DNA of 64,000 bases from Krischvirus LF73P4. Below, piece after piece: positions 26,418 to 56,887 of the stretch. A model generated the notes under the pieces. That model searched no databases, was not told the origin of the DNA, and saw only the letters and a program-made list of their open reading frames with translations. Within the stretch, counting starts at the first letter, position 1. Each line of letters starts with the position of its first letter. Where the stretch lies: sequence record OZ035795.1; one strand, written 5' to 3'. Both the position numbers and the translations under genes were made by a program.

Positions 26418-26426
26418 TAAGCGAAA

Positions 26427-26456
26427 GGCGGGGATTGTCCCCCGCCTTTTTATTTT
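26427..26456 (+). terminator. rho-independent terminator after gene 54
   Basis: GGCGGGG-attgt-CCCCCGCC followed by TTTTT. Confidence 0.7.
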
Positions 26457-26935
26457 GCTAAATCATTGCAATATTTTAGTGCCTTAGTTTGAAATTCTGC
26501 GCTGTTAAGTTCTTCATAACGGTCATAATCACCGTTTAATGCTGCCTTTCTTGCTTCTTGCTCTATCTGCATGTCAGACATGATAATACAGCGATCCCGC
26601 GCTTTCATCTTCTCAAGTTGTATAGACTCTTCTTTCTGCTTGCGCAATTCTTCTTGACGCTTCTTTTCTTCTTGTGCTTTCTCTTCCCGCGCTTCTTTGA
26701 TTGCATCCTTGAACATCTGCGTTTGTGGTGCTAAACCAACTTTAACTCGATCTACGTCTCGACGTTCCATTTTAGAAATAAAGCATGATTCGATCTGATC
26801 ATCACTTGCATATGCTGTTTTACATTCACGAAGCAAGAAAACCGGATCTGATTTAGCATTCATCATAGCTTCCATGTTGGCACAACCAGTAAGCATGAAT
26901 GCAGCCGCAAGACCAATCAGTTTAATCATTTTCAT
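26450..26935 (-). CDS. predicted lipoprotein with charged coiled-coil
   Basis: N-terminus MKMIKLIGLAAAFMLTGC carries a lipobox (LTGC). Confidence 0.55.
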   Translation of the reverse strand: MKMIKLIGLAAAFMLTGCANMEAMMNAKSDPVFLLRECKTAYASDDQIESCFISKMERRDVDRVKVGLAPQTQMFKDAIKEAREEKAQEEKKRQEELRKQKEESIQLEKMKARDRCIIMSDMQIEQEARKAALNGDYDRYEELNSAEFQTKALKYCNDLAK

Positions 26936-27756
26936 TTAGTCACCTCACCGAAAATTGTAAATTGTCTACGATTCTCATCGCCGAAAGATTCTACTACGTC
27001 GTTTACCTTGACGCAAGTCCCGCGCGGTAAAATTACTTCACATTCGCAAGGATTCCATGCAATTGACCCAACAACAAAACCTTTATGATCTTTTACGTCA
27101 ATTACCCATGATACATTACAAGAATGTTGCATCTTTCCGGTCATTGATTCATATCGATTCTCACAATAAAGGCTAGTGCTGTTTGATAGCCATCCTCCAA
27201 AGATGATCGGTGTCATGCTGGTAGATACAAAGTTTTTAAAGGTAAACTCCTTATCTTCAATGATACGCTCTATTGTCTGAATGTCAAGATGTTGACCGCG
27301 ATAAAGAGTACCGTTTAACTTTTCGGTTTTATCCATGACGCAATCCATCAAATCGACAATCTCTGATATCTCATCGGTCATGTCTTCTTCCCCTAAGAGA
27401 GCACCATTTACCCATTCGTATTGTTCAGATACATAATCACAGATTGCATTATATTCTGCTGGTGTTATGTTGTTATGTTTGTAATGTTTGAATACATTAT
27501 CTCCAAAGTCTTCGGAGTGTACTTCATACATCACATTAATGATTTTCTTGACAAATCCATAATCTTGTGTCTCACGCTCAAGGAAGCGGATAACCTTCAC
27601 ATAATCATCAAAGTTAATCTGATCGCTGATCATCTCAGTGATCATGTAACCATTAATCCCCTCAATGTCATATGTTTCAATATAATTATCCATACGTTCC
27701 ATCATTGATTCGCGTGATTCTTCCGAAAGACGAAAATCCTGTAATTTCTTGAACAT
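26932..27756 (-). CDS. ADP-ribosyltransferase, Alt/Mod family paralog
   Basis: R-S-E triad motifs LYRGQ, FVSTS, CECEVILPRG; GGGAGG RBS. Confidence 0.75.
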   Translation of the reverse strand: MFKKLQDFRLSEESRESMMERMDNYIETYDIEGINGYMITEMISDQINFDDYVKVIRFLERETQDYGFVKKIINVMYEVHSEDFGDNVFKHYKHNNITPAEYNAICDYVSEQYEWVNGALLGEEDMTDEISEIVDLMDCVMDKTEKLNGTLYRGQHLDIQTIERIIEDKEFTFKNFVSTSMTPIIFGGWLSNSTSLYCENRYESMTGKMQHSCNVSWVIDVKDHKGFVVGSIAWNPCECEVILPRGTCVKVNDVVESFGDENRRQFTIFGEVTK

Positions 27757-27773
27757 TTTAAACCTCCCATATA

Positions 27774-27808
27774 ACAGAAAACGGGGCTAGTATAAAACTA
27801 GTCCCCGT
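27774..27808 (-). terminator. terminator after alt
   Basis: Stem ACGGGGCTAGT/ACTAGTCCCCGT; T-run on minus. Confidence 0.5.
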
Positions 27809-27834
27809 TTGAGTCAACCATTATTTCTTAAAAA

Positions 27835-29886
27835 TTACATTTTAAATTTATCTGGCATTGCGTCTACAGATACCAGATCAGCGATAAGCTGACGTAGAGT
27901 TGCCTTATCTGCTTTCTTACGTTCGGTTTTAGCTTCGCTAATGAAGCTGGAGAAAGACAGGTCAGAAGCAGGTTTAACAACACCTTCACGGATGAATGCA
28001 TCACCGTCCGCGATCATCTCGCCAGATTCTTGTAATGCTGCCAGTTCATTTTTGTTCATAATATGTGCCTCAATGTAATAAGTTTCTTGTGAATCCGTCG
28101 ATGCCGTAGCACGAGTTACCGTATCAAAGGATAACACAACACCGCGAGGAAGTAAAATCTCGCATTCTTTGTAAGCAAATGCTTTGTTACCTACTGGCAA
28201 TACAGGGATGTTTTCCGCGCCAGCAATGGAGAAAGCAACATTAGCGCCACCTTCACCACGAGAGCCAGCCATAGAATCAACACCAGCAACGGCACTAGCC
28301 ACGTTTGCATTCCAGCCGCCAAAAATGTTAGGTGCAAGGGAAGTGCTCACATAGTTTTTAAAGTAAAACGCTTTTTGCTTACGTGCAGTTTCCCACATTT
28401 GCGACCGGAAGTCCATACCACGATACAGAATAGTACCCGGATCAAGTTTAACGCCATAGTTGGAGAAGGCATTATCCAGTGCATCGCACATCTTGACCAA
28501 TTCTTCTGGATCTGAGATGCCTTCAAACTCTTCCAGCTTACGGTCGGTTAGGAAGTTGTTCATATTGATGTATGCTGCATCGGCATATTCGCTCAACACA
28601 AAACCTTCCGCGCCTGGCAGATCAAGATCAATATCTGCCATCATTTCACCCATGTTACTAGCAATTGCTTCAAACATACCGGAAGCAACATTACGTAGGG
28701 CATCGGTTTTAATCTGGGTGATATGACTACGCAGCATTTCAGCTTTTACATCTGCTGGCATAGACTGGTCTACTCGATCCATTGCTAGGGCGGTGATCTT
28801 GTTTTCGAATACTTCCTCGCTCATGATTTCTTTTAAGCGTTTGATTGATGCTGCGATAACTTCCGCAGACAACGGATCATATTGATCCTGAACTTTTACC
28901 AGTTCGCTTACTGCGTATTTTGCATCGGCTTCGCTTTCAAAAATAGTACGCATGAAACCATAGCGAGTGATAATATCACTTGTCCAGTCATTCAGAGAAC
29001 GGGCGGTTGAACGTTCTAAGGCTTGACGATCAATCAGAGTATTAAACTGTTTCTTAGGTTCTGCTTCGGTGATATCTTCTTCCGGTTTAAGATTAATTTT
29101 TTCTGGATGATTCACATAGTCGCTGTTATAGGTCGCTTGAGTTTTCAGCATTTCTTCTTTAGTCAAACGAGATTTAGCCGCTACGCGTTGTTCTGCTTCC
29201 GCGTTTCGTTCTTCTTCTGACACAAGACTAGCCGCATACGCCTCATCTTTAGTCAGAGATTCACCAGTAGCCTTAGATACCCAGCGATCACCTAAATCAC
29301 TTTCTACTTTAGTGAACAAGGATTCATCAAGTTTAATCCCTTTAATCTTATCAATCGCCATCCCGCGACGTTTGACAACAACTAAAGCGATCTTTTTGCT
29401 GGTCATTACTTCCTGCTGGAATACTTCAAACTTCGGTGTACGACGCACCAAACGCTCTATAACGCGCTTAACCAGTTCGGTCTTACCTTTCATGCGGGAT
29501 ACGTTAAAACGGAACATAACAGCGTCTAATTGCGCTTTACGGGCTGTTTCCATAACCACATCAAAAGCACTTGCCATAACTGCAATCGGGTTATCTCCTA
29601 GACCATTTTTAAGCTGTACAATACGACCGCTTTTGTTCATTTCGCACAGTACAACATGTGCGGTCTTGTCACCCATACGAATGATTTTAGGTGTTTTGTT
29701 GGTGAAGTTACAAAGACGGACAATCACATCTTTATCGCGTGTCTGTACTGCAAAAAGCTGTTTAGGATTCTGCTTAGGCTTTAAGCACTGTACCGGAGCA
29801 ATACTGCCAAAGTTTTCTTCCTCTTCCGTCAACAGCCATTTCTCGAAAGATTCAATCATTAGATCGTCGATTTCTAAGTTAAACAT
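27835..29886 (-). CDS. alt: Alt ADP-ribosyltransferase
   Basis: 683 aa (T4 Alt 682 aa); LYRGMDF, YVSTS, ECEILLPRG; follows gene 54 as in T4. Confidence 0.85.
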   Translation of the reverse strand: MFNLEIDDLMIESFEKWLLTEEEENFGSIAPVQCLKPKQNPKQLFAVQTRDKDVIVRLCNFTNKTPKIIRMGDKTAHVVLCEMNKSGRIVQLKNGLGDNPIAVMASAFDVVMETARKAQLDAVMFRFNVSRMKGKTELVKRVIERLVRRTPKFEVFQQEVMTSKKIALVVVKRRGMAIDKIKGIKLDESLFTKVESDLGDRWVSKATGESLTKDEAYAASLVSEEERNAEAEQRVAAKSRLTKEEMLKTQATYNSDYVNHPEKINLKPEEDITEAEPKKQFNTLIDRQALERSTARSLNDWTSDIITRYGFMRTIFESEADAKYAVSELVKVQDQYDPLSAEVIAASIKRLKEIMSEEVFENKITALAMDRVDQSMPADVKAEMLRSHITQIKTDALRNVASGMFEAIASNMGEMMADIDLDLPGAEGFVLSEYADAAYINMNNFLTDRKLEEFEGISDPEELVKMCDALDNAFSNYGVKLDPGTILYRGMDFRSQMWETARKQKAFYFKNYVSTSLAPNIFGGWNANVASAVAGVDSMAGSRGEGGANVAFSIAGAENIPVLPVGNKAFAYKECEILLPRGVVLSFDTVTRATASTDSQETYYIEAHIMNKNELAALQESGEMIADGDAFIREGVVKPASDLSFSSFISEAKTERKKADKATLRQLIADLVSVDAMPDKFKM

Positions 29887-29926
29887 TTTATATCCTCTAG
29901 TTGATAACCTATAAACCTATATTTAT

Positions 29927-29948
29927 GAAAAAGGGGCTTAACGCCCCC
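29927..29948 (-). terminator. rho-independent terminator
   Basis: GGGGC-ttaac-GCCCC with A-run on plus. Confidence 0.55.
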
Positions 29949-29953: not shown

Positions 29954-30166
29954 TTATAATGCACCATCGAGCAATTGCTCTAAGGTGTATCCTGAATAGT
30001 CTTTTTCAATCAGGATATATTTTCCTACTCGTTTAATACAACCGCGCATTTCAACGTATTCTGCGTAGTTGATGGTGCGAGTTGTTCCATCTTCCAGTAA
30101 TGCAGTACCGATTTCGTTAATGCGGTCATAAGTTACGTCGGTAATGATGATTTCGATGTTAGCCAT
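29954..30166 (-). CDS. hypothetical protein
   Basis: 70 aa; PeSL cassette upstream, terminator downstream. Confidence 0.5.
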   Translation of the reverse strand: MANIEIIITDVTYDRINEIGTALLEDGTTRTINYAEYVEMRGCIKRVGKYILIEKDYSGYTLEQLLDGAL

Positions 30167-30240
30167 TTGATACTCCTTAGTAGTTCGTTTCGGTATGGGT
30201 GTATTATGATATACACCCTCTGTTATGTCAACAACTTTTA
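30167..30240 (-). promoter_or_regulatory. PeSL-type early promoter/stem-loop cassette
   Basis: Minus strand TTGACA-17-CATAAT; hairpin GGGTGTAT/ATACACCC over the -10; leader GGAG..ATG. Confidence 0.6.
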
Positions 30241-30417
30241 GAACATTTTTGAAATCAATTCTGCTTTGATTTCGCAGAGAACATCTAAAGATTTCTCGTC
30301 ACCTGCTTTTGCTGCTTCTGCTTGCATTTTTGAAATGGCTTCAATGTCGGTGCAATTATAAGCCGCTTGAACTTTAGCGATTGCGATGATTGCCGATTCG
30401 ATGGTTAAGTGTTTCAT
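30238..30417 (-). CDS. small hypothetical protein
   Basis: 59 aa, manually translated; PeSL cassette and conserved leader upstream. Confidence 0.4.
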   Translation of the reverse strand: MKHLTIESAIIAIAKVQAAYNCTDIEAISKMQAEAAKAGDEKSLDVLCEIKAELISKMF

Positions 30418-30486: not shown

Positions 30487-31005
30487 TTAGTTATTTTTTA
30501 ATTGCTCATCTTGCAATAGGGCAATCACATGCTGGCGATGTTCTTCCGATTGAGGCACACCGAAAAAGTTTGTTTTGTAGAAATACTCTAATCGGTCTTC
30601 TCGTGTGCTCTCTTCCATCATGATCGCGGGTAGTCCGAGATTTCGGAAACGTCGCTTTTCTGCTGGCGTAAAATCACTGTAATACAACATAGAATCATCA
30701 TTACCAGCAATGCTAAACTCATCCTTCATAAAGGAGAATATTGCGTTTAAACGCTGTTTACCGTCCACGATTTCGATCTCATAGCGAGAGCCATCATCAA
30801 TCTTAGCCATTGCGATAGCACCAACCGGAAAATCATTAATCAGGTTTTCGATAAACATACGTTTGTTTTCGGTGTCCCATACCAAAGGACGCTGATAATC
30901 TGGGTTCATGTTGATATAGCCATCTTCTAACCATGCTTCGTAAACAGAGATGACAAAGTTTTTAGTATTGGTATAGTAACGGCGTTTAGGCGTTAAACGG
31001 TTCAT
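30487..31005 (-). CDS. DUF262 / ParB-like nuclease-domain protein
   Basis: DYQRPLVWD and VDGKQRL motifs; start set at ATG after AGGAG, 1 nt from the upstream stop. Confidence 0.6.
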   Translation of the reverse strand: MNRLTPKRRYYTNTKNFVISVYEAWLEDGYINMNPDYQRPLVWDTENKRMFIENLINDFPVGAIAMAKIDDGSRYEIEIVDGKQRLNAIFSFMKDEFSIAGNDDSMLYYSDFTPAEKRRFRNLGLPAIMMEESTREDRLEYFYKTNFFGVPQSEEHRQHVIALLQDEQLKNN

Positions 31006-31006
31006 G

Positions 31007-31336
31007 TTATAGTCTCCTGAATGGATCATCACGTAAATCAATATCTTTTAAGAACTCATCCCATGAATGGCGGATATTGTTCTTAATTCTCCAGATAAGC
31101 GCAGGGATTGAACGCTCTCCCATCTGGAAGTATGGATCATATGATCCGTATGCCCAATATGCTACTACAATTCCACAATCAGCGCAATAGTATTCTATTT
31201 CACTTGCTGGCGACCAAAGTCCATCAATATGATCGGTGATCTTGCTTTCGATGTTATGGCTATGACAATCAGGGCAACGGATGCAATGACCTTGTTTATC
31301 GTAATTTGACGTTAGCGAATACTTAAACAATCTCAT
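31007..31336 (-). CDS. zinc-ribbon protein
   Basis: CIRCPDC..CADC cysteine pairs; overlaps neighbours in an operon. Confidence 0.5.
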   Translation of the reverse strand: MRLFKYSLTSNYDKQGHCIRCPDCHSHNIESKITDHIDGLWSPASEIEYYCADCGIVVAYWAYGSYDPYFQMGERSIPALIWRIKNNIRHSWDEFLKDIDLRDDPFRRL

Positions 31337-32052
31337 TATAGATCCTTATTGGCTTCAAATACTGCCTTTGCGAATCCTCGCGGGGTAAGTGACCTTATAG
31401 TCTTTGTTTTCGTTCCTTTCCCGCCTAGCTTAGAATGCTGTTTACTGTACCCTTTATTAATCTGCAACGGTTTCTTTTCTGGCATTATAAAGCCTTGTCC
31501 GGTCCATAAGCAAGTCTTTTTTGGGTACATATCACGGTCGGCAATATACTCAGGAAAAGTAGGATGTTTATCATCTTCCGGCAAATAACCGCCATATTCC
31601 CACGGATGGAACATATAATCAGGCTTACGCCACATGCTAGAGATAACGCTTACAGGATTCTCTATCATGTAGGGAACTCCTAGCCATTCACCCAAATAAG
31701 CGGTTATTTTAGCTGCCCGTACATCATGAACTTGAATCAATGGTCCTTGTTCTAGTTTCTTTCGTTCAAAGTGCGCAGCGCCACTAACAGCTAAATTGGT
31801 GCACGGTGGGAATGCAAAGATAATATCCGGTTTCCCCCATTCAAGGTCCATTGCTCTTTCCAGCCAATTCAAATCAATCCATGTGTTTACATAGGTAATG
31901 TTTGGATGTTCAAATCGGGTATTATACTTTTTGTATGTGCCGTGGTCGCCATCGTCAGCATTAAAGCAGATCACCTTATGACCCGCTTTAGCCCATTCTA
32001 ACCCCATTATCCCCGATCCGTCAAAGTTGCAGAATATTAATTTTTGTTTCAT
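31336..32052 (-). CDS. DNA C5-cytosine methyltransferase-like protein (short)
   Basis: Motif I-like FDGSG, catalytic-like DIIFAFPPC (compare DIL.AGFPCQ), ENP at the motif VI spacing; only 238 aa with no obvious target-recognition domain. Confidence 0.5.
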   Translation of the reverse strand: MKQKLIFCNFDGSGIMGLEWAKAGHKVICFNADDGDHGTYKKYNTRFEHPNITYVNTWIDLNWLERAMDLEWGKPDIIFAFPPCTNLAVSGAAHFERKKLEQGPLIQVHDVRAAKITAYLGEWLGVPYMIENPVSVISSMWRKPDYMFHPWEYGGYLPEDDKHPTFPEYIADRDMYPKKTCLWTGQGFIMPEKKPLQINKGYSKQHSKLGGKGTKTKTIRSLTPRGFAKAVFEANKDL

Positions 32053-37296: not shown

Positions 37297-37608
37297 TTAA
37301 AGTTTTTCCATGATAACGGTCATAATTACATCTTCTGCGCGAGCGGTCAGATTATCAGCGTCAGCATGTGGGCGGTTGGTTGTTACAGAGATAACACCGT
37401 TGCGCACTGGTTTGATATTGATATCAAGATGATCCGCGAAACGTTCGCCAGTTACAGAATGAATTTTGGTGTTAAATTCTTTTGCCAGTGCCTTGCGAAC
37501 TTCACGAATCAGGGTAGCGTTTTTCAGTTGGTTCTCCGCGCTCATGGTCTTCTGAGTGTTCATGGTTCCGTCGAAGTCAATCATTGGCAGCGTTACGATG
37601 TATTTCAT
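37297..37608 (-). CDS. hypothetical protein
   Basis: 103 aa; PeSL upstream. Confidence 0.5.
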   Translation of the reverse strand: MKYIVTLPMIDFDGTMNTQKTMSAENQLKNATLIREVRKALAKEFNTKIHSVTGERFADHLDINIKPVRNGVISVTTNRPHADADNLTARAEDVIMTVIMEKL

Positions 37609-37688
37609 TTTTGATTCTCCTTAAGAAAGTGTGTTTCGTTTTGATGTGTGTAGTATAGGGGATCACCGATCCCCTGTCAACAACTTTT
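37609..37688 (-). promoter_or_regulatory. PeSL-type early promoter/stem-loop cassette
   Basis: TTGACA, spacer palindrome GGGGATCGGTGATCCCC, TATACT. Confidence 0.6.
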
Positions 37689-38018
37689 TTATGATTTTAG
37701 TGAATTAACCACTACATCAAAATGATGTACAGAGCACACCTTATTAAACACATATTCATCGTGTTTAGGAATAGCCCCTAATCGCTCGATTTCGCTCGCT
37801 GACACGATAAACCGTTTATCAGGTGCATTTACCTTATATGCTTCAACAACGCACGGAAAACGCGTTTTAGAGAGTTCGGGATAGTTTTCTGACTCCATCA
37901 GGACAATGAATACCCTATTACATTGATTGTAGAATCCGGTTTTTGATTTCATCAAGTTTTCTTCTCTGTGAAATTCGTGCAATCTTCCTTTCATGATTTC
38001 GTTGGTTCTTGTCTTCAC
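37689..38018 (-). CDS. hypothetical protein (start uncertain)
   Basis: Track ORF overlaps the upstream gene by about 100 nt; true start is probably an internal ATG. Confidence 0.35.
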   Translation of the reverse strand: MKTRTNEIMKGRLHEFHREENLMKSKTGFYNQCNRVFIVLMESENYPELSKTRFPCVVEAYKVNAPDKRFIVSASEIERLGAIPKHDEYVFNKVCSVHHFDVVVNSLKS

Positions 38019-38259
38019 AGTTTACCCACTCAACAAGGTCTTTGCCTAACTCGAAAGCCCATTCTCGGTCCTGCTTTACGTTTTGTAGGTATGGACTTTC
38101 CGACACTCGACGAAGTGATCTTGTCGTAACAAGAATGATCCCAGGAATGTTCGGATGTTCCTTTCCATATACAATAGGACGCGAGTCACTATCAATACCC
38201 TGTAAGAAGGTGTATCCTGAATCACTTAGGATCATATACATTTTCATTTCATCCATCAC
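37918..38259 (-). CDS. hypothetical protein
   Basis: 113 aa. Confidence 0.45.
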   Translation of the reverse strand: MMDEMKMYMILSDSGYTFLQGIDSDSRPIVYGKEHPNIPGIILVTTRSLRRVSESPYLQNVKQDREWAFELGKDLVEWVNCEDKNQRNHERKIARISQRRKLDEIKNRILQSM

Positions 38260-38516
38260 AGTTTCCTCAACCAGTTATTAAAGCGAGTAAACCATGATGC
38301 TTTTCGTGCTTCTTCTTCGGCTTTGCACGCACGCAAACCACTGAAACACCATTCATAATCATCACTGAAACATGATTCAACAGGAACACCCGCATTTCGT
38401 AGTTCTCTGGTCTTTATCATGAATCCTTGACATAAGGGGCGACCTTCAACAATGATAGGAAGTTTAACTTTTTCCATGAAAGTATACCCAGCACGGTCAA
38501 TAATTTCAATTTTCAT
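38256..38516 (-). CDS. hypothetical protein (paralog of 39762..39983)
   Basis: N-terminal pattern II..AG..FM..K.P.I.E shared with the second copy. Confidence 0.45.
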   Translation of the reverse strand: MKIEIIDRAGYTFMEKVKLPIIVEGRPLCQGFMIKTRELRNAGVPVESCFSDDYEWCFSGLRACKAEEEARKASWFTRFNNWLRKL

Positions 38517-38760
38517 TTACATTATCTCCATAGATCTTTCCATCAATATCAATTTCACCAGCGCGAACATCTAGGATAAGATGTGGTAGGTGTATGCAGT
38601 TTTCCCACCCTACGCGCTTCATTTCTTCTACGGTAACGTAAGCCCACCCGTTCGCTGTAATAAAGTCTACTTCAACCTTGAGAGGAAAGCAAGACTTTTC
38701 TATGTCTTCGAATCCGACAATATGTTTTGTTGTTGAATATGGAATATATCCGGTGATCAT
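38506..38760 (-). CDS. hypothetical protein
   Basis: 84 aa; overlapping operon. Confidence 0.45.
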   Translation of the reverse strand: MITGYIPYSTTKHIVGFEDIEKSCFPLKVEVDFITANGWAYVTVEEMKRVGWENCIHLPHLILDVRAGEIDIDGKIYGDNVNEN

Positions 38761-39218
38761 TTTGTGATCTCCTTATACTCAACACACCATAAGCGGGTAG
38801 CCCATGATAAACGCTCATAACGCTGGCAGAAATCGGACCATAGATATTGTGTACCGTCTTGCATGGTTGAAATATGCGTTTTCTCTCCAACTTTCACGAA
38901 AGAAGTATTCGATTTTGTGATCTCGACCGGAGTATATCCGAAAGCGGGTTCCAACTCAACATCTGAACTAAATGCCAATTTAACAGAATTTGTTTTTCTG
39001 ACCGCTGTCCGGTTTCCTTCTGGGTACAGCACAGCAGGTTTAGCGCCTAAGCGGATAAACTCAGTATTTTTAATGAACAGAATATCATGATAACCGTCAT
39101 ATTCCGACACTTCCATAGTAACAGGAAAATCGACATGTGCTAAACCTGGTAGATCTCGCATATCATGAAATGTAGCCATAATCTTTTTCATTCTATATTC
39201 CTCACTCTTCTGTTTCAT
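38757..39218 (-). CDS. hypothetical protein
   Basis: 153 aa. Confidence 0.45.
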   Translation of the reverse strand: MKQKSEEYRMKKIMATFHDMRDLPGLAHVDFPVTMEVSEYDGYHDILFIKNTEFIRLGAKPAVLYPEGNRTAVRKTNSVKLAFSSDVELEPAFGYTPVEITKSNTSFVKVGEKTHISTMQDGTQYLWSDFCQRYERLSWATRLWCVEYKEITK

Positions 39219-39438
39219 TTCTTTTATATGGTACTATAACAGGATTAATACAGCAAGCACCAATTACGTTATGAGCACCACAATTTAAGCATTTATAATC
39301 ATGGAACTTATTAAGGAATCGCCCGAACTCATAACCGACTAACGCCGCGTGTACTTGAGTCTCGATCTCATCCATATCAGCCAATGTTTTAACCTTCATA
39401 ATATAATCCTCAAATACTGGTTTTGCGAAGATGGTCAT
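39202..39438 (-). CDS. Cys-rich small protein
   Basis: CLNCGAH..GACC. Confidence 0.4.
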   Translation of the reverse strand: MTIFAKPVFEDYIMKVKTLADMDEIETQVHAALVGYEFGRFLNKFHDYKCLNCGAHNVIGACCINPVIVPYKRNETEE

Positions 39439-39700
39439 TACATGCTTTTAATGCATCAGTCGAGGTGTCATAGCGAGTATTATCATAGCACCAATAACCA
39501 TCTGTCAACTGATAAATTAATCCATCCTTTTTAGCGTCGATGAAAGACAATTCTTTGAAAGTTTCTACTTTCTTTGCTGATACTCCACGGTCACGGCGTT
39601 TATAGAGTTTAGCTAAAATGCGTTCAGCTTGTTCCTCTTTATCGCCAGACAGATCCCAGATGATGTTTCTGATATGCTTGATTAATTGTTCAGTGGTCAT
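39410..39700 (-). CDS. hypothetical protein
   Basis: 96 aa; PeSL upstream. Confidence 0.45.
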   Translation of the reverse strand: MTTEQLIKHIRNIIWDLSGDKEEQAERILAKLYKRRDRGVSAKKVETFKELSFIDAKKDGLIYQLTDGYWCYDNTRYDTSTDALKACNDHLRKTSI

Positions 39701-39761
39701 ATTTGATTCTCCTTAGTTGGTATGGTTATCATTATACGGGGATTTCTCCCCGTGTCAACAA
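39701..39761 (-). promoter_or_regulatory. PeSL-type early promoter/stem-loop cassette
   Basis: TTGACA, spacer palindrome GGGGAGAAATCCCC, TATAAT. Confidence 0.55.
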
Positions 39762-39983
39762 TTAAATGATCTCTGCTTCACCGTTAAGGAAGAAAGACCA
39801 TGTTTTGTTAGGATAACGAAGCGCCCACGATTCAGCAGTTTTAACACCAGCTTCGAACAATTGACGGCTGGTTACTTTAGCCATACCATCTTCGATGGCA
39901 ACGTTTTCAATAATCATCGGGTACTTAGCGCCACGCATGAAACCGAAGCCAGCGGAAGATTTGATAATTTTAACAGTTGCCAT
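39762..39983 (-). CDS. hypothetical protein (paralog of 38256..38516)
   Basis: Trimmed to MATVKII after the conserved leader. Confidence 0.45.
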   Translation of the reverse strand: MATVKIIKSSAGFGFMRGAKYPMIIENVAIEDGMAKVTSRQLFEAGVKTAESWALRYPNKTWSFFLNGEAEII

Positions 39984-40070
39984 TTTTGATTCTCCTAGAA
40001 AGTGTCGTGTTTCGATGGGTGTATTATGCAATAACACCGGATCGCTGTCAACACTTTCTAAGAAAAATTT
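39984..40070 (-). promoter_or_regulatory. PeSL-type early promoter cassette
   Basis: TTGACA-17-CATAAT; conserved leader. Confidence 0.55.
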
Positions 40071-40355
40071 TTAAACTAATCGAATATAGCCCAGAATTTC
40101 AGCACCTTTAGCCAGTCCTAAAACTTCCCATTCAAGGTCGCCGTAGTCATAATTTGCAACCATCAACTGACCATTTTTCATGCAGCAATCATGAGAGAAA
40201 ATTTGCCCCGCATAAACTACGATAGTAATAAACTTTCCTGATTCTGGCGGTGTGGAAGACAAAGCGACCATATGACCATTCAGCTTAGTAACCAGTGATG
40301 GAACAATAAAATTCGGGCTTACCTTAATACCGTTAAATTCGTTTGTGTCTTTCAT
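40071..40355 (-). CDS. hypothetical protein
   Basis: 94 aa. Confidence 0.45.
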   Translation of the reverse strand: MKDTNEFNGIKVSPNFIVPSLVTKLNGHMVALSSTPPESGKFITIVVYAGQIFSHDCCMKNGQLMVANYDYGDLEWEVLGLAKGAEILGYIRLV

Positions 40356-40702
40356 GCCAGACCTCGCAAAACACTAATAGCATAATCATGCTGGTTATTC
40401 ATAATATCAATTGCATTGTGATAACGAGCTAAACCATCAAGGATAAATTCTTGTTTATCCTGTTTCAGTTTGGTATCACGCGCAGCCATAAGAGCATCAA
40501 GAACAGGTCCAAAGTGATTATCTAATTCATCTTCGGTTGCAATGTTTCCTATTGCCTCGTCGATCCGTGATTCTAATGCTTGCTTTTCGTTGATCACTTG
40601 CTGGGTATATTCCAACACATCAAGAATATCGCGGGTAACGTCGCCATGATAAGGTATTCCCGCATGAAGATGATCAATTAATCGCTGAATATCAATGTTC
40701 AT
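40352..40702 (-). CDS. hypothetical protein
   Basis: 116 aa. Confidence 0.45.
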   Translation of the reverse strand: MNIDIQRLIDHLHAGIPYHGDVTRDILDVLEYTQQVINEKQALESRIDEAIGNIATEDELDNHFGPVLDALMAARDTKLKQDKQEFILDGLARYHNAIDIMNNQHDYAISVLRGLA

Positions 40703-41037
40703 TTGTAACCCTCCTCTGAAAGCACATCCCAGATCGTTGAGTCAAGGTGCATTAAATTCCACATAATAGAGTCATAACTACCGAAGCCAGAAGTAAAAAT
40801 TACATCACACTGGCGATAGGTCTTATGAAAATCGGTGGCTGTCTCTGCATCAATCGGCATATCGTCACCTGAAAGCACCAGACATTTAAGAATCATAACT
40901 CTGTTAGCCGTTGGCGCTTGCTTAGTCTTTTCAGCATATTTTTCGATGATCCGTTTTGCCTTTTCTTCTTTGATACGTCCAGACCAAATCCGGTTTCGGT
41001 ATTGATTCATAATAATTTCAATCACATCATTTTGCAT
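40699..41037 (-). CDS. hypothetical protein
   Basis: 112 aa. Confidence 0.45.
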   Translation of the reverse strand: MQNDVIEIIMNQYRNRIWSGRIKEEKAKRIIEKYAEKTKQAPTANRVMILKCLVLSGDDMPIDAETATDFHKTYRQCDVIFTSGFGSYDSIMWNLMHLDSTIWDVLSEEGYK

Positions 41038-41236
41038 TCTTCACGGTCTCCATAATTGTTTTGTAAGCCAGCTTAAGATGATCACCGAAAAACTTTGCAG
41101 TGTTACCCTTCGGATCGCGAAGCATGGTTTCTACGATCTCATCGGCAGTAACAATTTCTCCTTTCTTTGCTGCATGTTCTACCATATACTTCAAAGTTTC
41201 TTCGGAGGCAAGTGCTGCGGCTACTGGATTAATCAT
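41027..41236 (-). CDS. hypothetical protein
   Basis: 69 aa; PeSL upstream. Confidence 0.45.
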   Translation of the reverse strand: MINPVAAALASEETLKYMVEHAAKKGEIVTADEIVETMLRDPKGNTAKFFGDHLKLAYKTIMETVKNAK

Positions 41237-41300
41237 TTTGGTTCTCCTTTGTTGTCGATGTGTGCATTATGCTATACCCTATTCCGGTTGTCAACACCTA
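41237..41300 (-). promoter_or_regulatory. PeSL-type early promoter cassette
   Basis: TTGACA-17-CATAAT; leader GGAGAACCAAA-ATG. Confidence 0.55.
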
Positions 41301-41304
41301 AAAA

Positions 41305-41336
41305 CGAAAAAGCCACCCTTTCGGATGGCTTTTTGA
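41305..41336 (-). terminator. bidirectional-looking terminator
   Basis: AGCCACCC-tttc-GGATGGCT flanked by A-run and T-run. Confidence 0.6.
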
Positions 41337-41564
41337 TTATATTTTATTCACGTCCATTTGTATAGTAGTGTTTGAATCGACCTTTGCTAAACTAGTTAAA
41401 CATAGTAACCAATTCACCATCCCTTTCCAATGATAACCCTTCCTCGTCTTAGACGGGTCTTCCGATTCGGCAGTAATTGAACACGCGAAAGTATGAGGAA
41501 GCCAAATGGTTGTGTTAATGCTAGTTTTCTTTTACTTCTGATATGTATCCCACGGTGACTAACA

Positions 41565-41963
41565 TTAAGCCAGTCGAGTGAGTTTATAAATTGTTTTAAA
41601 GCATAGAGCTTTGATATCGTCTAAAACGCTCTGTAACGAGCTATCAACATCATTATAAATCTCACTAGCCATTTGCGTTAACTCTTGCAAATAGGCAATT
41701 TCGCTAATCTCCTTGCGGACGACCAACTTTGGCTGATAACGACCAGTGATCCCAATATTGGTTTCAGTGAAATTATCAACCAATTCTTGCATTTCAAGAT
41801 AGAACTCTTCTAGAGCCTTATGTTTTGCATAAGATCCAGGACCAGTTACCCCAAAATGCGCAGAATGCATATAAGTAACACTCATCAGACATTCACCGAT
41901 AAAGCGGTCAACTTTATTAGCCTTTCCCTCTTCGGACGTCTTTAGAAAATCACTGAATTTCAT
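41565..41963 (-). CDS. Dps-like ferritin-fold protein
   Basis: Start at MKFSDF after GGAGAA; HSAHF..KHKALEEF..VDNFTE gives H-x11-H-x14-D-x3-E, the spacing of the Dps ferroxidase ligands. Confidence 0.55.
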   Translation of the reverse strand: MKFSDFLKTSEEGKANKVDRFIGECLMSVTYMHSAHFGVTGPGSYAKHKALEEFYLEMQELVDNFTETNIGITGRYQPKLVVRKEISEIAYLQELTQMASEIYNDVDSSLQSVLDDIKALCFKTIYKLTRLA

Positions 41964-42252
41964 GTTCTCGATTCTCCATATTATGCAACAGAACAAATTG
42001 TTGTGCGGCATATCCCCCCATAATAAAACACTGCCTAGAATCCATACATTTACTACGAGCATACATCTTCATAATATGGGCATGAAATTTCTGGCTGGTT
42101 TCAATGGAAGGAGATATTTTGTTTACATATACTATCATTGCGCCGTCGAAATAATCAGTAAAGTCACCAGTTGGATCATATTGATCAGCACTGACACTTC
42201 CGACCGCAGTCAAGCATATTGCCGCTGTTAGAGTTTTACGAATAAATGACAT
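41950..42252 (-). CDS. small secreted protein
   Basis: Signal-peptide-like N-terminus MSFIRKTLTAAICLTAVGSVSA. Confidence 0.45.
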   Translation of the reverse strand: MSFIRKTLTAAICLTAVGSVSADQYDPTGDFTDYFDGAMIVYVNKISPSIETSQKFHAHIMKMYARSKCMDSRQCFIMGGYAAQQFVLLHNMENREHEIQ

Positions 42253-42320
42253 AAGTCATTCCCCCAGATTGAAAATATTCAGTTATATTTATAATCTGGG
42301 GCTTTATTTATGATTAACTC

Positions 42321-42917
42321 TTATTTGGTAGTACCGTCAATAAAATGTTTACGGCACACAGAAACATATTTATCCTCTGCACCAACTTCGATTTGAGCAC
42401 CATCGCGAATAACATTACCCTCTTTATCTACACGAAGGACCATTGTTGCTTTCTTGCCACAATGACAAATACCCTTCATTTCGACCAGTTTATCAGCAAA
42501 TGCCATTAATGCCGCAGATCCTTCAAATAGATTGCCCTGAAAGTCAGTGCGAAGGCCATAGCACAGTACAGGGATATTAGCATCATCAACAAGCGCACAC
42601 AAGCCTAAAACATGCTCTTTAGTCATAAATTGGGCTTCATCTACAAATACTGCATCTGGACGCCATCGATCCGGTCTACGCTTACCTAACGATTCACGAT
42701 AAACCAAATCGAAAAGATCATCCGATTTAGTGAAGGTGATCGCTGGGGCACTTAGGCCAATTCGGGAAACGACTTCACTTTCTGAATCTCGATTATCAAT
42801 CGCTGGCTTAAGAATTAATACTCGCATATCACGTTCGGTATAGTTATAAGCACTTTGTAACAGAGAAGTTGATTTGCCAGCGTTCATAGATGCATAGTAG
42901 AAATATAATTGCGCCAT
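42321..42917 (-). CDS. tk: thymidine kinase
   Basis: P-loop MNAGKST; FVDEAQF; CHCGKKA; collinear with recalled T4 Tk. Confidence 0.93.
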   Translation of the reverse strand: MAQLYFYYASMNAGKSTSLLQSAYNYTERDMRVLILKPAIDNRDSESEVVSRIGLSAPAITFTKSDDLFDLVYRESLGKRRPDRWRPDAVFVDEAQFMTKEHVLGLCALVDDANIPVLCYGLRTDFQGNLFEGSAALMAFADKLVEMKGICHCGKKATMVLRVDKEGNVIRDGAQIEVGAEDKYVSVCRKHFIDGTTK

Positions 42918-43210
42918 TAATTAATCTCCAAAAATCCAACAAGGCCTAAACCGATATAAGTCCAGATACCAATGAAAAAGATGTTAATGCTCATGGCAAG
43001 GATAAACCCTTTCAGAGTTTTGGGATACCCGACCCAATATTCCCGACCATCTTCTAACCGGATCAACTTATTGCCTTGCGAGTCCATATCAACTACAACA
43101 TGTTTATTTCGAGATTGCAATAGATATTGTTTTACAATCTCTACACCCGCCATAATAACAATAACGAAAATAAAAGTCCACACAACAAGATTAATGATAG
43201 TCTCAAGCAT
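42917..43210 (-). CDS. small membrane protein
   Basis: Two hydrophobic segments. Confidence 0.45.
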   Translation of the reverse strand: MLETIINLVVWTFIFVIVIMAGVEIVKQYLLQSRNKHVVVDMDSQGNKLIRLEDGREYWVGYPKTLKGFILAMSINIFFIGIWTYIGLGLVGFLEIN

Positions 43211-43457
43211 TTTCTATCACCTCCACCCAATCAGGTGTTTCCTGAAAGACTCCTTCACCTTCATGATGGTCGCAACCTTTATTGCTACAGTACATCCACC
43301 AATCCCACATTCCCCACGGTAAACGCTGCATATCGTCGTTACAGCAAGTGAAGATGATAGGCCAACCACATCTACCACATCGGCAGTTTTCCTTCATGTG
43401 TGCGCTATTAGGCTTCATATTCAACCACCACAATATTGATATCCGGCGTAAAATCAT
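43203..43457 (-). CDS. Cys/Trp-rich zinc-finger-like protein
   Basis: CRCGRCGW..CC..C..C..H pattern. Confidence 0.4.
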   Translation of the reverse strand: MILRRISILWWLNMKPNSAHMKENCRCGRCGWPIIFTCCNDDMQRLPWGMWDWWMYCSNKGCDHHEGEGVFQETPDWVEVIENA

Positions 43458-43863
43458 TAATAATTTCTTCTACGCATTCCCACTCAAGACCGCCAATCCC
43501 ACAACCAATTTTAGGAATATAGAACGGCTTAACAGTACCTTCAAATGCGGAGTTAAGTTGTTCGAATCCACGGATGATAGCGGAATATTCAGCATTTGGT
43601 CCTGGACGGAATTGCGTATAAAGATTAATACCCATCCAGTTATAACCATTAACGGTATGATGCCAAACATTAAACTCGCCTAGCTTACTCGCCGTTCCTC
43701 TCGGTGTCTTTTTGTCAGTAGCCAATGCTTGCGGGAACTCTTTCGCGATCTTCGCAGCAATACCAGCACCCATAGTATGAAAACAATTACAACCATGAAT
43801 TAAATGACCGTTTCCTTGTTTAAACAGGGCGATGAGATCGCCCTTTACAGTATCAATAATCAT
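43408..43863 (-). CDS. macro-domain protein (ADP-ribose binding/hydrolase)
   Basis: GCNCFHTMGAGIAAKI and IGCGIGGL resemble macro-domain glycine-rich loops. Confidence 0.6.
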   Translation of the reverse strand: MIIDTVKGDLIALFKQGNGHLIHGCNCFHTMGAGIAAKIAKEFPQALATDKKTPRGTASKLGEFNVWHHTVNGYNWMGINLYTQFRPGPNAEYSAIIRGFEQLNSAFEGTVKPFYIPKIGCGIGGLEWECVEEIINDFTPDINIVVVEYEA

Positions 43864-43878
43864 AATATAAACCTCTCA

Positions 43879-44238
43879 TTAGTCACGGGAAGACAACCCA
43901 GCCATAAAACGGCTTAACAGTGTGTCGCGATAAGCAAAGCATAATTGCTTATCAGGGGCAGTATCACAAAGGTTGCGTTTTGTTTTAGCAAAGCTGGCAA
44001 TACTCAGATCCCACGCTCGATTTTTTCGTTTTTCATCTCGACCTTGTTTGTATGCTTCATCAAGTTCGAGCGCGATAAAATCACTACACATGTTATCATC
44101 ATCACAGAAAGTTTTAATGATCTTTTTGTTGATCTCAAATCCTTTGTATTCGAACTTTGGATAAGGGCGCTCATTACTAGCAAGCGCACCAGCCGAGAAC
44201 ATCATAGCAATCATAGCAATTATTGTCAACTTTTTCAT
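43879..44238 (-). CDS. secreted Cys-containing protein
   Basis: Signal-peptide-like N-terminus. Confidence 0.45.
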   Translation of the reverse strand: MKKLTIIAMIAMMFSAGALASNERPYPKFEYKGFEINKKIIKTFCDDDNMCSDFIALELDEAYKQGRDEKRKNRAWDLSIASFAKTKRNLCDTAPDKQLCFAYRDTLLSRFMAGLSSRD

Positions 44239-44245
44239 ATATTCC

Positions 44246-44836
44246 TCAATAGCGTTTAGTCTTAAGAATGCCTTTACTCTTTAGATGGTTAGCCTTTTTT
44301 AGTACATCATCAGCATAACCTAACCCGGCTTTATAGTTCCATCCAGCATTGTAAGAAGCTAGCGCGAGTCGGATATTACCGTTTCGAACATCCAGCCAGT
44401 ATGCTAACTCATCCATCGCGTAGAATGCAGAAACCTCGCGATTCATGATAAAGTTGATAGTCTGGCGATCACTCATTTTAACACCGCGCTTTGCATTTTT
44501 CGCTTTCACCGTTTTAAGGTAATTTTGAAATAATCCATAAGCATGATGATTTTTCTTTGGTGCTAAGTTTGCACCCGCGCTTGATTCTTGCCATGCGATA
44601 CCCGCCAGGATGTGACCTAAACCCTTTCCGTTATAGCGAATATTCGGATGGTCCTTTTTCAACTTACCGCTTTTCTCGAATTGCTCGCCGTATTGATAGG
44701 CGAAATGTAAATTATCTAGTTGGTGTGCTGTAAAGTTGTCTATCGGCGCTTTTTTGATCGGTGCGCTAGTCGATGCGTGTGTAGCACCAACGGCTAGTGA
44801 CAGACTCAATACTATCGCTTTTAGAACTTTTAACAT
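44246..44836 (-). CDS. secreted lytic transglycosylase (SLT domain)
   Basis: Signal peptide; GIAWQESS catalytic-Glu motif; YNAG. Confidence 0.65.
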   Translation of the reverse strand: MLKVLKAIVLSLSLAVGATHASTSAPIKKAPIDNFTAHQLDNLHFAYQYGEQFEKSGKLKKDHPNIRYNGKGLGHILAGIAWQESSAGANLAPKKNHHAYGLFQNYLKTVKAKNAKRGVKMSDRQTINFIMNREVSAFYAMDELAYWLDVRNGNIRLALASYNAGWNYKAGLGYADDVLKKANHLKSKGILKTKRY

Positions 44837-44869
44837 TAATTTCTCCTGTTTGGCTTAACTTTCTGATTC

Positions 44870-44905
44870 CATAATATAGCCCTATCACCAGAAAGTCAAG
44901 CATTA
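44870..44905 (-). promoter_or_regulatory. possible sigma70-like promoter
   Basis: Minus strand TTGACT..TATATT upstream of the transglycosylase gene. Confidence 0.3.
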
Positions 44906-44922
44906 TTTTTAACCAATTTCCA

Positions 44923-45345
44923 TTATTGGTCTACCTTCAAAACAACCGCCGACATTTTACCCGCCAGTCGTTTTGGATTCTCTATAATCATTCGGCAGCA
45001 TAGACCGTGATATGGCTTACCCTCTTCGATTAGATCTACTGTCATCCCGATCCACATGTTACCGTCAGTAATTTCTAATCGATTCGGACGGTCTTCCATT
45101 TTCAGGAAGTCGAAGATCTCCGGCAAACGAGTTTCTATCTTATTGAATAGTTCCATTGTCTTATGTTCATCGATATGACGATCGGTTAGACGGTCGATCA
45201 TATGCGGACTAAAGCGAATGAAAATATACTCACCATAACCATCATTCAAGCACTTTTCTTTGATCTGTGCATTGGTTTTGCGCATTTCGGTTTCGAAGAA
45301 TCTACGCAGCTTACTACGGCGAACATGTACGTTAATTGTTTCCAT
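44923..45345 (-). CDS. regB: RegB site-specific endoribonuclease
   Basis: RSKLRRFFE, RLEITDGNMWIG and CRMIIEN match recalled T4 RegB; start at METINVH after AAGGA. Confidence 0.85.
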   Translation of the reverse strand: METINVHVRRSKLRRFFETEMRKTNAQIKEKCLNDGYGEYIFIRFSPHMIDRLTDRHIDEHKTMELFNKIETRLPEIFDFLKMEDRPNRLEITDGNMWIGMTVDLIEEGKPYHGLCCRMIIENPKRLAGKMSAVVLKVDQ

Positions 45346-45349
45346 TTTA

Positions 45350-45685
45350 TTATCCTTTCTTAAACAAATTGCGAAGCCAGTATACAAACGGGATTTCTTT
45401 AAACTTGAACTTGTCAATAGTTAATTCTTTAGTAGCAAGATGAATACCATAAGCATCATGTGTAACTATATGCCATTTTCTATAGTCCAAATGTGAACAA
45501 CCGTCTGGATCTAGGTTAATAAGAGTTTCTCGCTCACTAGAATTATTTTTCCACAATTTTGTAATAGGATCGCACATAATTCGACCTAGCGTACCATGAA
45601 TAATCTCACAACGGTAAAGTTTTCCAGCAGTGAGATAGGCGCACCCGTCATAGTCGGTATAAACAAACACTTCTTTAACACTCAT
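45350..45685 (-). CDS. small protein, tandem family (copy 3, internally repeated)
   Basis: Start at MSVKEV after GGAGTA; shares motifs with the next two genes. Confidence 0.45.
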   Translation of the reverse strand: MSVKEVFVYTDYDGCAYLTAGKLYRCEIIHGTLGRIMCDPITKLWKNNSSERETLINLDPDGCSHLDYRKWHIVTHDAYGIHLATKELTIDKFKFKEIPFVYWLRNLFKKG

Positions 45686-45745
45686 TTTAATACTCCTTTG
45701 TTGTTTCGATGGGGGTATATTACTACCCCCGATCATGGGTGTCAA
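45686..45745 (-). promoter_or_regulatory. PeSL-type early promoter/stem-loop cassette
   Basis: TTGACA-17-TAATAT; hairpin GGGGGTAGTAATATACCCCC. Confidence 0.55.
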
Positions 45746-45991
45746 CTACTTTTTCAAGATTTTTTTGAGTGCATTCCAAAGACCTTTATTCCCAGGTTGT
45801 TTTGGTTCTTCGATCAGTGTCCATGTTCGACCGTCTAAGTGTGCACAATTTTTAAGACAAATAAAAATCTGGTGTCCCTTATCATCACGGATATAACCAC
45901 TATTCGCAAATCTTTCATGTGGTGTATATTCATACAGTGTATTAGGTGTAATATACTTGCGGTTACTATAAGGTGTCATCACATACATCAT
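45746..45991 (-). CDS. small protein, tandem family (copy 2)
   Basis: ATGA overlap with upstream stop; GYIRDDKGH..HLDGRTWTL parallels copy 1. Confidence 0.45.
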   Translation of the reverse strand: MMYVMTPYSNRKYITPNTLYEYTPHERFANSGYIRDDKGHQIFICLKNCAHLDGRTWTLIEEPKQPGNKGLWNALKKILKK

Positions 45992-46182
45992 GGTACTAAC
46001 TCCCAACGATCACCGCGAAGATGAGAACATCTACCATCAAGAAGTATTGTAATACGATAACCTATATCATCTTTGATGTAACCGATTGTCGGTGGATTTT
46101 CGTCGTCTCGTGCCGGGGTAAAATCATACATCTTTCCGGGCGTAATATCTTGTCCTTTATTGCTATTGGTATAAACTTGCAT
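45988..46182 (-). CDS. small protein, tandem family (copy 1)
   Basis: AGGAGA RBS; GYIKDDIGY..HLRGDRWEL. Confidence 0.5.
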   Translation of the reverse strand: MQVYTNSNKGQDITPGKMYDFTPARDDENPPTIGYIKDDIGYRITILLDGRCSHLRGDRWELVP

Positions 46183-46203
46183 TTTCTTAATCTCCTATAT
46201 TAA

Positions 46204-46902: not shown

Positions 46903-46920
46903 AATTAAACCCTCAGTTGA

Positions 46921-47514: not shown

Positions 47515-47526
47515 ATTTCACCTCAT

Positions 47527-47557
47527 AAAAATAAAGCCAACCCTTTCGGATTGGCTT
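47527..47557 (-). terminator. rho-independent terminator
   Basis: AGCCAACC-ctttc-GGATTGGCT with A-run on plus. Confidence 0.55.
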
Positions 47558-47562
47558 GTCGA

Positions 47563-47976: not shown

Positions 47977-48111
47977 AATTCACCTCTTATAGATCAGGAC
48001 GTTCGTCATTAATTTTACCAACCAAAACACCATAGAGTTTATCAGGTTGGACTTTACGATTCTTATTGATTGTAGAACGGAATCGACGAGCTACGCTATC
48101 TTTATTTTTCA

Positions 48112-56850: not shown

Positions 56851-56856
56851 ACTGTA

Positions 56857-56887
56857 TAAAAATAAAGCCGACCACGAGGATCGGCTT
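56857..56887 (-). terminator. rho-independent terminator after gene 35
   Basis: AGCCGA-loop-TCGGCT with A-run on plus. Confidence 0.5.

Follow-up and report, generated by a model that had tools for sequence, protein, structure and literature searches.

The 64,000-nucleotide stretch of DNA analyzed here (the window), from Krischvirus LF73P4 (record OZ035795.1), carries alt, a gene for an Alt-like ADP-ribosyltransferase, followed by a second and much shorter transferase open reading frame (ORF) and then by an ORF with a lipobox. This arrangement raises the question of what the second transferase is: a copy or remnant of its neighbor, a displaced Mod protein, another packaged enzyme, or a gene with a role of its own. 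It is the Krischvirus core gene ORF183c, and we consider it likely that it is an old Alt-type paralog in an early cassette with the lipoprotein gene and that a macro-domain gene found elsewhere in the window is unrelated to it. A preliminary description, made from the letters alone, had placed the three genes in the order Alt, second transferase, lipobox protein; the ORFs, their coordinates and their order are all as it had them. The three genes are on the minus strand and convergent with baseplate gene 54.

27835 to 29886, minus strand: alt, full-length Alt-like ADP-ribosyltransferase of 683 amino acids, RB49p184 (phrog_802, E 7e-180; RB49 annotation).
26932 to 27756, minus strand: short Alt-type ADP-ribosyltransferase (hereafter short ART) of 274 amino acids, RB49p183/ORF183c (PF03496, phrog_15144).
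26450 to 26935, minus strand: predicted outer-membrane lipoprotein of 161 amino acids, RB49p182 (sequence, lipobox).

The locus belongs to an RB49-like Krischvirus, being 98.5–99.1% identical to the Krischvirus records among the matches listed (30 listed of 58 matches), and its features are real and beyond chance. The short ART and lipoprotein genes overlap by 4 nt (ATGA). At the amino-acid level the short ART is 100% identical to RB49p183, which RefSeq labels 'ADP-ribosyltransferase; similar to C-terminal part of T4 Alt protein'; RB49 ORF183c and PHROG 15144 are the same gene, with no difference in sequence. RB49ORF183c was also listed, together with 44RR ORF188c and T4 alt.-1/alt.-2, among the paralogous duplications of alt, with 44RR ORF187c as a full-length alt duplicate (Nolan et al. 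2006, PMC1524935). The preliminary description had implied that the co-located transferase pair was new, and this does not hold, because the gene is annotated in RB49 and was described in that 2006 study. The gene pair is thus real and correctly read, but its annotation and its description as an alt paralog predate this analysis. What we add is evidence for the age of the short ART and the constraint on it, for its conserved cassette with the lipoprotein gene, and for an early-type promoter of that cassette, together with the multi-allelic nature of the lipoprotein.

Both transferases exceed the gathering score of PF03496 (ADPrib_exo_Tox; 23.4 bits), the short ART with 59.3 bits over residues 82–266 and the window Alt with 37.8 bits over residues 425–610. 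The window Alt aligns with T4 Alt over its full length (BLASTP, 27% identity, E 1e-60). The short ART is matched over its full length by phrog_15144 ('ADP-ribosyltransferase', E 3e-198), and on the phrog_802 Alt profile it covers positions 330–602 of 674 only (E 3e-45), such that the N-terminal ~330 residues of Alt are missing from it. By BLASTP it is 31% identical to residues 413–593 of T4 Alt (E 4e-23) and 37% identical to residues 487–593 of the window Alt (E 4e-16). The R-S-E triad that had been read in the 274-amino-acid protein is complete: R153 lies in GTLYRGQ, S178 in FVSTS (S178-T-S180), and E238-C-E240 in ECEVILPRG, and an alignment of 76 family sequences shows no variation at R153, S178, E238, or E240. 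An AlphaFold (AF2) model of the protein shows the ADP-ribosyltransferase fold, a split β-sandwich preceded by N-terminal helices, and is compact, with a predicted local distance difference test score (pLDDT) of 94.6 and a predicted template modeling score (pTM) of 0.90. Foldseek matched this model to Vis (4xzk, E 2e-11), C3bot, iota toxin, and CDTa and, among viral models, to the Alt and 'split Alt' proteins of T4-like phages. To judge from its sequence, then, the short ART is a stand-alone mono-ADP-ribosyltransferase of the Alt/VIP2 type, corresponding to about residues 330–600 of Alt, and it is apparently catalytically competent. In the R-S-E clade an E-x-E motif confers arginine specificity, and by this motif the short ART would be directed at arginine.

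In its small size and its R-S-E triad the short ART recalls the Mod proteins, the small early transferases of T4; it could in principle be a ModA/ModB ortholog moved beside alt, the outcome that the preliminary description had named as one that would undercut its proposal. The alignment with Alt, ModA, and ModB that it had called for gave a clear answer. Against the E of 4e-23 to the catalytic domain of T4 Alt, and that of 3e-45 to phrog_802, ModA was matched at E 3.9–5.4 only, and ModB was not matched by BLASTP. No Mod protein appeared among the top 50 viral-model structural matches found by Foldseek, the structural neighbors being Alt proteins. Moreover, RB49 has a Mod homolog of its own, RB49p014 (167 amino acids, positions 8917–9420 of comparison locus L008), which adjoins srd/dda as in T4, has its LYRG, SFT, and ERE motifs intact, and is nearer ModB (33% identity) than ModA (23%). 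A hidden Markov model (HMM) for Mod, run over the whole RB49 genome, matched only 8920–9465, and an HMM scan of all six-frame ORFs found exactly three R-S-E transferases in RB49. BLASTP, the HMM search, and synteny with the true Mod gene thus rule out a relocated Mod, a reading to which we give virtually no credence. ModA and ModB do resemble the short ART in being small, non-packaged R-S-ExE enzymes made early, the role that we propose for ORF183, but they are of another sequence family and another locus, where the Krischviruses have their own single Mod. At that place T4 has ModA and ModB in tandem, and Krischviruses have a single short Mod homolog.

How old is the short ART relative to the alt gene beside it? 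In an exhaustive search of 1.84 billion representatives, the short form (271–288 amino acids) fell into only about four clusters at 50% identity, and beyond these clusters the full-length Alts start, after a drop in score from 202 to 80 bits. In a neighbor-joining tree of catalytic domains, the short-ART clade had 74% bootstrap support and the Krischvirus Alt clade 95%, and the two were joined in 2 of 500 replicates (0.4%), so the short ART is not a recent copy of the neighboring alt. The short ART is also closer by score to T4 Alt (88 bits) than to the Alt next to it (67 bits), which, with the bootstrap result, rules out a recent tandem duplication of the adjacent gene. From these comparisons we take the short ART to be an old paralog of the catalytic half of Alt.

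The same arrangement is found in metagenomic relatives, some of which we refer to below by locus number. These share the order Alt (660–683 amino acids), short ART (264–282 amino acids), an ORF of 159–169 amino acids, and convergent gp54, and their short ARTs are ~97%, 45%, 41–46%, and 33% identical to that of the window. In every module lineage the third gene overlaps the ART gene by 1–8 nt. The order Alt, short ART, lipoprotein, gp54 is therefore conserved down to 33% identity of the transferase.

Duplicated alt material downstream of alt and before gene 54 is also found in T4 (alt.-1/alt.-2) and in Aeromonas phage 44RR (ORF187c/188c), and the short ORF could be a duplicated alt in decay, comparable to those of T4, whose fragments occupy the identical slot and were grouped with ORF183c by Nolan et al. 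(2006). The pattern of substitution is not that of a remnant. Among eight cultured genomes, the mean ratio of nonsynonymous to synonymous differences per site (pN/pS) was 0.061 for the short ART over 28 pairs (one comparison, for example, has 23 synonymous and 2 nonsynonymous differences), similarly low to the 0.045 of Alt; that of the lipoprotein was 0.129. The short ART is 97–100% identical at the amino-acid level in 58 of 58 cultured records carrying the locus. It is under strong purifying selection and is a maintained gene, and the pN/pS values rule out a pseudogene. With catalytic residues that are invariant, a predicted fold that is compact and confident, and a gene that no cultured Krischvirus record lacks and that relatives at 33–46% identity retain, decay is barely credible as an explanation. 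The T4 fragments (L003 4066–4451) differ in kind: they are two short N-terminal pieces, 56–62% identical to residues 1–117 of Alt and without the catalytic domain, and in BLASTP they match the window Alt and not the short ART. The same slot thus holds complementary leftovers of alt duplication, N-terminal fragments in T4 and an intact catalytic half in Krischviruses.

We then asked how the two transferases would be expressed. The following elements surround them:

29932 to 29948, minus strand: terminator-like hairpin GGGGGCGTTAAGCCCC with a T-run, which ends the upstream small-ORF unit just before alt (terminator scan, sequence).
29920 to 29927, minus strand: late-promoter-like CATAAATA, a 7/8 match to the T4-type TATAAATA, function predicted (sequence read).
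27789 to 27817, minus strand: predicted σ70-type early promoter, TTGACT-17 nt-TATACT, AT-rich upstream, 33 nt before the ART start codon (promoter scan, 10/12).
27781 to 27808, minus strand: stem-loop ACGGGGACTAG ... CTAGCCCCGT and then UUUUCU, terminator-like for alt transcripts and overlapping the -10 of the next promoter (RNA fold).
26423 to 26450, no strand assigned: hairpin between the convergent gp54 and lipoprotein genes, predicted bidirectional terminator with an 11-bp stem (terminator scan).

The gap between alt and the short ART is laid out as aagaaataatgg-TTGACT-17-TATACT, with ACGGGGACTAG and CTAGCCCCGT pairing across the -10 box, followed by GGGAGG and ATG. The stem-loop folds at -20.6 kcal/mol (z -4.3), and its counterpart in L005 at -18.8 kcal/mol with altered stem bases. 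The combination of the promoter with CCCC is unique in the window, with 0.02 chance matches expected. The promoter boxes are kept as TTGACA-17-TATACT in L005 and L010 and as TTGACA-17-TATAGA in L011; the stem is retained while its sequence differs. An RB49 early promoter, Pe:112388, was predicted at this site in the supplement of Nolan et al. (2006), along with terminators on both sides of the unit; the one beyond the lipoprotein gene is entered there without a strand as '54-><-RB49ORF182c'. Makalu_003 is annotated with a terminator at the gap that separates alt from the short ART, and the hairpin between gp54 and the lipoprotein gene is marked in the annotations of both G2494 and Makalu_003.

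This layout fits the promoter-early stem-loop (PeSL) class. Like the PeSL cassettes of RB49 and phi1, the gap has an AT-rich stretch, σ70 boxes, a GGGG...CCCC stem-loop over the -10, a Shine-Dalgarno sequence, and an ATG. PeSLs, however, mostly precede small ORFans in hyperplastic regions, and the element here, predicted in silico, stands in front of a conserved pair of genes bordering the baseplate module; promoter and terminator activity was measured in RB49/phi1 at PeSL211/210, 206/205, and 193/192 only (Arbiol et al. 2010, PMC2839356).

At the other end of alt the arrangement resembles that of T4, which has a hairpin in the equivalent place and a perfect TATAAATA upstream of its alt in the homologous place. 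The position of the hairpin is kept in L005 and L013, and the corresponding RB49 position carries a TransTerm terminator, 'alt<--RB49ORF185c', in the supplement of Nolan et al. (2006). The motif before alt reads AATAAATA in L005, TCTAAATA in L011, and CATAAATA in L013. With a terminator and a late-promoter-like motif upstream of it, as T4 alt has, alt would be expressed late, and its product packaged and injected. A separate cassette would be formed by the short ART gene and the lipoprotein gene that overlaps it, under a σ70 early promoter set inside the terminator hairpin. A promoter of this type, together with the hairpin, suggests early cytoplasmic expression of the short ART, unlike that of the packaged Alt: the enzyme would appear in the cytoplasm minutes after infection and would ADP-ribosylate host proteins, serving host takeover or anti-defense. 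Krischviruses would then have three transferases, an injected Alt, an early short Alt-type enzyme, and one Mod, in place of the Alt, ModA, and ModB of T4.

The third gene of the module encodes the lipobox protein that the preliminary description had noted downstream of the second transferase, and its reading is borne out by the N-terminus MKMIKLIGLAAAFMLTGC, with a signal peptide MKMIKLIGLAAAFM ending in the lipobox LTGC. The AF2 model (pLDDT 87.8) is all-helical, with one helix of 63 residues. The lipobox, conserved in the module lineages (five) and in the allele of PHB13 type, reads LTGC, LNGC, LFGC, or MTGC, and in L005, L010, L011/L012, and L013 every third gene encodes a lipobox together with four more cysteines. 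In the window these conserved residues are C38, C51, C116, and C156, and a charged helical stretch is present. The residue at position +2 is Ala (Ser in L010), and from this non-Asp residue sorting to the outer membrane by the Lol pathway is predicted; the four conserved cysteines would fit a periplasmic protein. The W115 annotation of p182 likewise reads 'putative lipoprotein' (LipoP).

Comparisons with known families gave little. In Pfam, NCBIfam, and PADLOC the lipoprotein had only chance-level matches, below curated cut-offs or at E>0.001; its PHROG family is one of unknown function; and against solved structures there was no sequence match beyond coiled-coil noise and a best Foldseek hit at E 0.76. 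Two candidate identities were rejected: the protein is unrelated to T4 alt.-3 on comparison, and the spanins of RB49 are pseT.2/pseT.3, encoded elsewhere, so it is not the spanin. ORF182 appears on a list of ORFs with links to islands, plasmids, or integrons (Arbiol et al. 2010, PMC2839356), and our plasmid search found no plasmid homolog. T5 Llp and Cor-type lipoproteins, outer-membrane proteins of phages that exclude superinfection by blocking receptors, share with the protein here the form of a phage lipoprotein, proposed to be early, whose predicted place is the outer-membrane inner leaflet and whose cysteines could form disulfides. They differ from it in having no sequence or fold similarity to it, and the protein here is much larger (143 mature residues) and is dominated by its 63-residue helix.

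The lipoprotein gene is far more variable than its surroundings. Compared with PHB13, the gp54, short ART, and Alt proteins of the window are 99.1–99.7% identical, and the lipoprotein (L009 4501–5013) is ~36% identical, with nucleotide identity falling from 99% to ~40% exactly at the borders of the lipoprotein gene. In L013 (5001–5486), the lipoprotein has 81% amino-acid identity and a pS of 0.57, between flanks that are ~97–99% identical with a pS of 0.16–0.26. Residues 1–19, up to and including the lipobox, do not differ between alleles, and the break points are sharp, lying just past the lipobox and at the terminator. There are thus at least three very divergent lipoprotein alleles between near-identical flanks, with identities of ~36%, 81%, and at least 95%. 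Positive selection was considered as a cause and rejected: three genomes gave 0 synonymous and 2 nonsynonymous differences, a small-sample effect, as the eight genomes gave a pN/pS of 0.13. Given that value within an allele class, the divergence is therefore not positive selection.

The lipoprotein would end up on the outer membrane, facing the periplasm, and might serve there as an envelope function, in receptor masking or superinfection exclusion; with low confidence, we suggest an envelope function under frequency-dependent pressure, which would fit the divergent alleles. Gene order and the 1–8 nt overlap are kept in every lineage, down to 33% identity, and one might explain this by a functional coupling of the short ART and the lipoprotein, as a toxin/protector pair or in a shared envelope role. 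The two products, however, would be in different compartments: no signal peptide is present on the transferase, and the lipoprotein, being exported, could not share the substrates of the short ART. In addition, lipoprotein alleles have been swapped independently of a transferase gene that is more than 99% identical, and a co-adapted pair is therefore unlikely; taking both points together, we regard coupling as very improbable.

The position of the short ART beside alt, adjoining the late morphogenesis block, suggests a different fate for the enzyme: it could be a second head-packaged and injected protein, made late by read-through from alt. Many phage ARTs in such contexts were remarked to be packaged (Iyer et al. 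2022). The N-terminal sequence of the short ART, MFKKLQDFRLSE, also holds an L-x-E motif of the prohead-protease kind. Prohead protease cleaves at L-x-E-type motifs.

T4 Alt, the head-packaged arginine mono-ADP-ribosyltransferase of the Alt/VIP2 family, shares with the short ART the catalytic domain family (PF03496, R-S-ExE) and the genomic slot between gene 54 and the alt region, and the structural neighbors of the short ART are Alt proteins. The short ART, however, is the catalytic half alone. It lacks both the N-terminal half of Alt and the C-terminal P-x-K-F tail of full-length Alts, ending instead in ...FGEVTK. This tail is MPDKFKM in the window Alt, MPYKFVQG in T4 Alt, and LPEKFII in the split-form protein P0008; the Alt of L005 has it as well, and P0007 has the variant MSKKFKM, in which Ser replaces Pro. 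The form ...(M/L)P-x-K-F-xx was compared in the window (27835–29886, minus strand), in T4 Alt (L003 4455–6503), and in L005 (3930–5936), and the conserved tail may be a packaging or ejection signal. Further, the conserved hairpin with its U-run lies between the two transferase genes, and behind it the short ART is served by a conserved σ70 promoter, where T4 alt has the late TATAAATA. Its co-translated partner is an exported lipoprotein and not a virion-type protein, and the L-x-E motif is missing from the diverged orthologs. We therefore regard packaging as unlikely, and the short ART is probably non-packaged, unlike T4 Alt.

Several points weigh against an early, non-packaged short ART in a cassette with an envelope lipoprotein. 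The L-x-E in its N-terminus is a possible prohead-protease site, albeit one that the diverged orthologs do not conserve. The HMM score of Pe:112388 is weak, at 9.3 compared with ~19–39 for the neighboring entries shown in the table of Nolan et al. (2006). The motif before alt matches just 7/8 of TATAAATA, and that study predicted no late promoter there, so the early/late split between the two transferases is an inference. The role of the lipoprotein, drawn from localization signals and allele diversity with no fold or family match, is weakly supported. Finally, the literature searched yielded no Krischvirus expression, packaging, target, or enzymatic data on the short ART, and no Krischvirus virion proteome that covers it.

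A more specific proposal, which we put forward only tentatively and think doubtful, is that the short ART, far from duplicating Alt redundantly, is an early enzyme with its own target, for example a component of host defense or translation, retained with the lipoprotein in an ancient early cassette of two genes, and that the lipoprotein alleles define mutual-exclusion or receptor-masking groups. If this were true, the locus would be a paired module for cytoplasmic takeover and envelope exclusion among co-circulating Krischviruses, and the multi-allelic lipoprotein would be a candidate exclusion factor. The locus is also a natural experiment in how T4-like phages diversify their ADP-ribosylation toolkit: in T4, Mod is duplicated (ModA, ModB) and the alt fragments are dead N-terminal pieces, whereas Krischviruses have one Mod and a live, catalytic-only Alt paralog. 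The targets of the short ART would tell whether packaged and newly made Alt-type enzymes share out the work. T4 Alt counters Mokosh type I and MazF, and the question of targets is timely because of this link to the evasion of both.

The preliminary description had gone one step further and proposed that a macro-domain protein encoded elsewhere in the window could remove the modifications made by the two transferases.

43408 to 43863, minus strand: macro-domain protein, RB49p091 (tk.4, 'A1pp phosphatase motif'; PF01661 at 28.3 bits, cut-off 22).

The macro domain itself stands, and Alt, the short ART, and the macro protein are all encoded in the 64-kb window; the role of eraser does not stand. 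The protein is 43% identical to T4 Tk.4 over 153 residues, its full length (E 2e-45), and its gene adjoins vs (43879–44238) and the SLT-domain gene vs.1 (44246–44836), downstream of tk, as does that of T4 Tk.4. Its best profile matches are to DarG macrodomains, which act on ADP-ribosylated DNA (PADLOC DarG, E 2e-15; NCBIfam antitoxin_DarG, positions 2–144). T4 Tk.4 is AdfM, which is required for resistance to DarTG2 (bioRxiv 10.1101/2025.11.20.689424) and presumably strips ADP-ribose from thymidine in DNA (same source, with background in PMC11825919). By sequence similarity and neighborhood the macro gene is the Tk.4/AdfM ortholog, so by analogy Krischviruses probably carry the same anti-DarTG2 counter-defense, the activity itself being known from the T4 protein only. 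As T4 has the macro gene too, it is not specific to the pair of transferases.

Chemistry and position also speak against a writer/eraser system for protein ADP-ribosylation. E-x-E transferases modify arginine, and ADP-ribose on arginine is removed by ARH/DraG-type hydrolases; macrodomains are not known to be its erasers. The 14 kb that separate the macro gene from alt in the window become ~61 kb in RB49 and ~50–70 kb in GoldenSnicker, the two cultured genomes measured, and no cultured record has the junction that brings them closer in the window. The DarG profiles, the AdfM identity, and the orthology with Tk.4 rule out the eraser role, and a system of Alt, short ART, and macro protein is scarcely plausible. 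The writer/eraser reading of the macro gene is hereby corrected.

The 14-kb spacing arises because of a non-canonical junction. Positions 1–37690 of the window are colinear with RB49 84461–123304, positions 37605–56851 match RB49 42957–62882, and positions 56743–64000 match RB49 150109–142854 in inverted orientation. The two junctions, at ~37605–37690 and ~56743–56851, are absent from all 58 cultured Krischvirus genomes. The first is a textbook PeSL (TTGACA-GGGGATC...GATCCCC-TATACT) and the second a repeat of ~110 bp, and each of these repeats pre-exists at both RB49 partner sites. The arrangement of the window is therefore due either to recombination at resident repeats or to an assembly mis-join.

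Three genes upstream of alt, a protein of 184 amino acids (30487–31041, minus strand) is made up of only the N-terminal DUF262 domain of GmrSD (GmrSD_N, PF03235, E 5e-20). GmrSD proteins are type IV restriction enzymes. The DUF262 gene is followed by a DNA methyltransferase-like gene at 31336–32052. Two small ORFs lie between alt and the DUF262 gene, of 70 amino acids (29954–30166, minus strand) and 59 amino acids (30238–30417, minus strand), neither with a family match. The 70-amino-acid ORF has a strong σ70-like promoter, TTGACA-17-CATAAT (30231–30203), with a hairpin across the -10 that resembles a PeSL, and an RB49 early promoter, Pe:115047, is listed upstream of the 59-amino-acid ORF in the supplement of Nolan et al. 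(2006).

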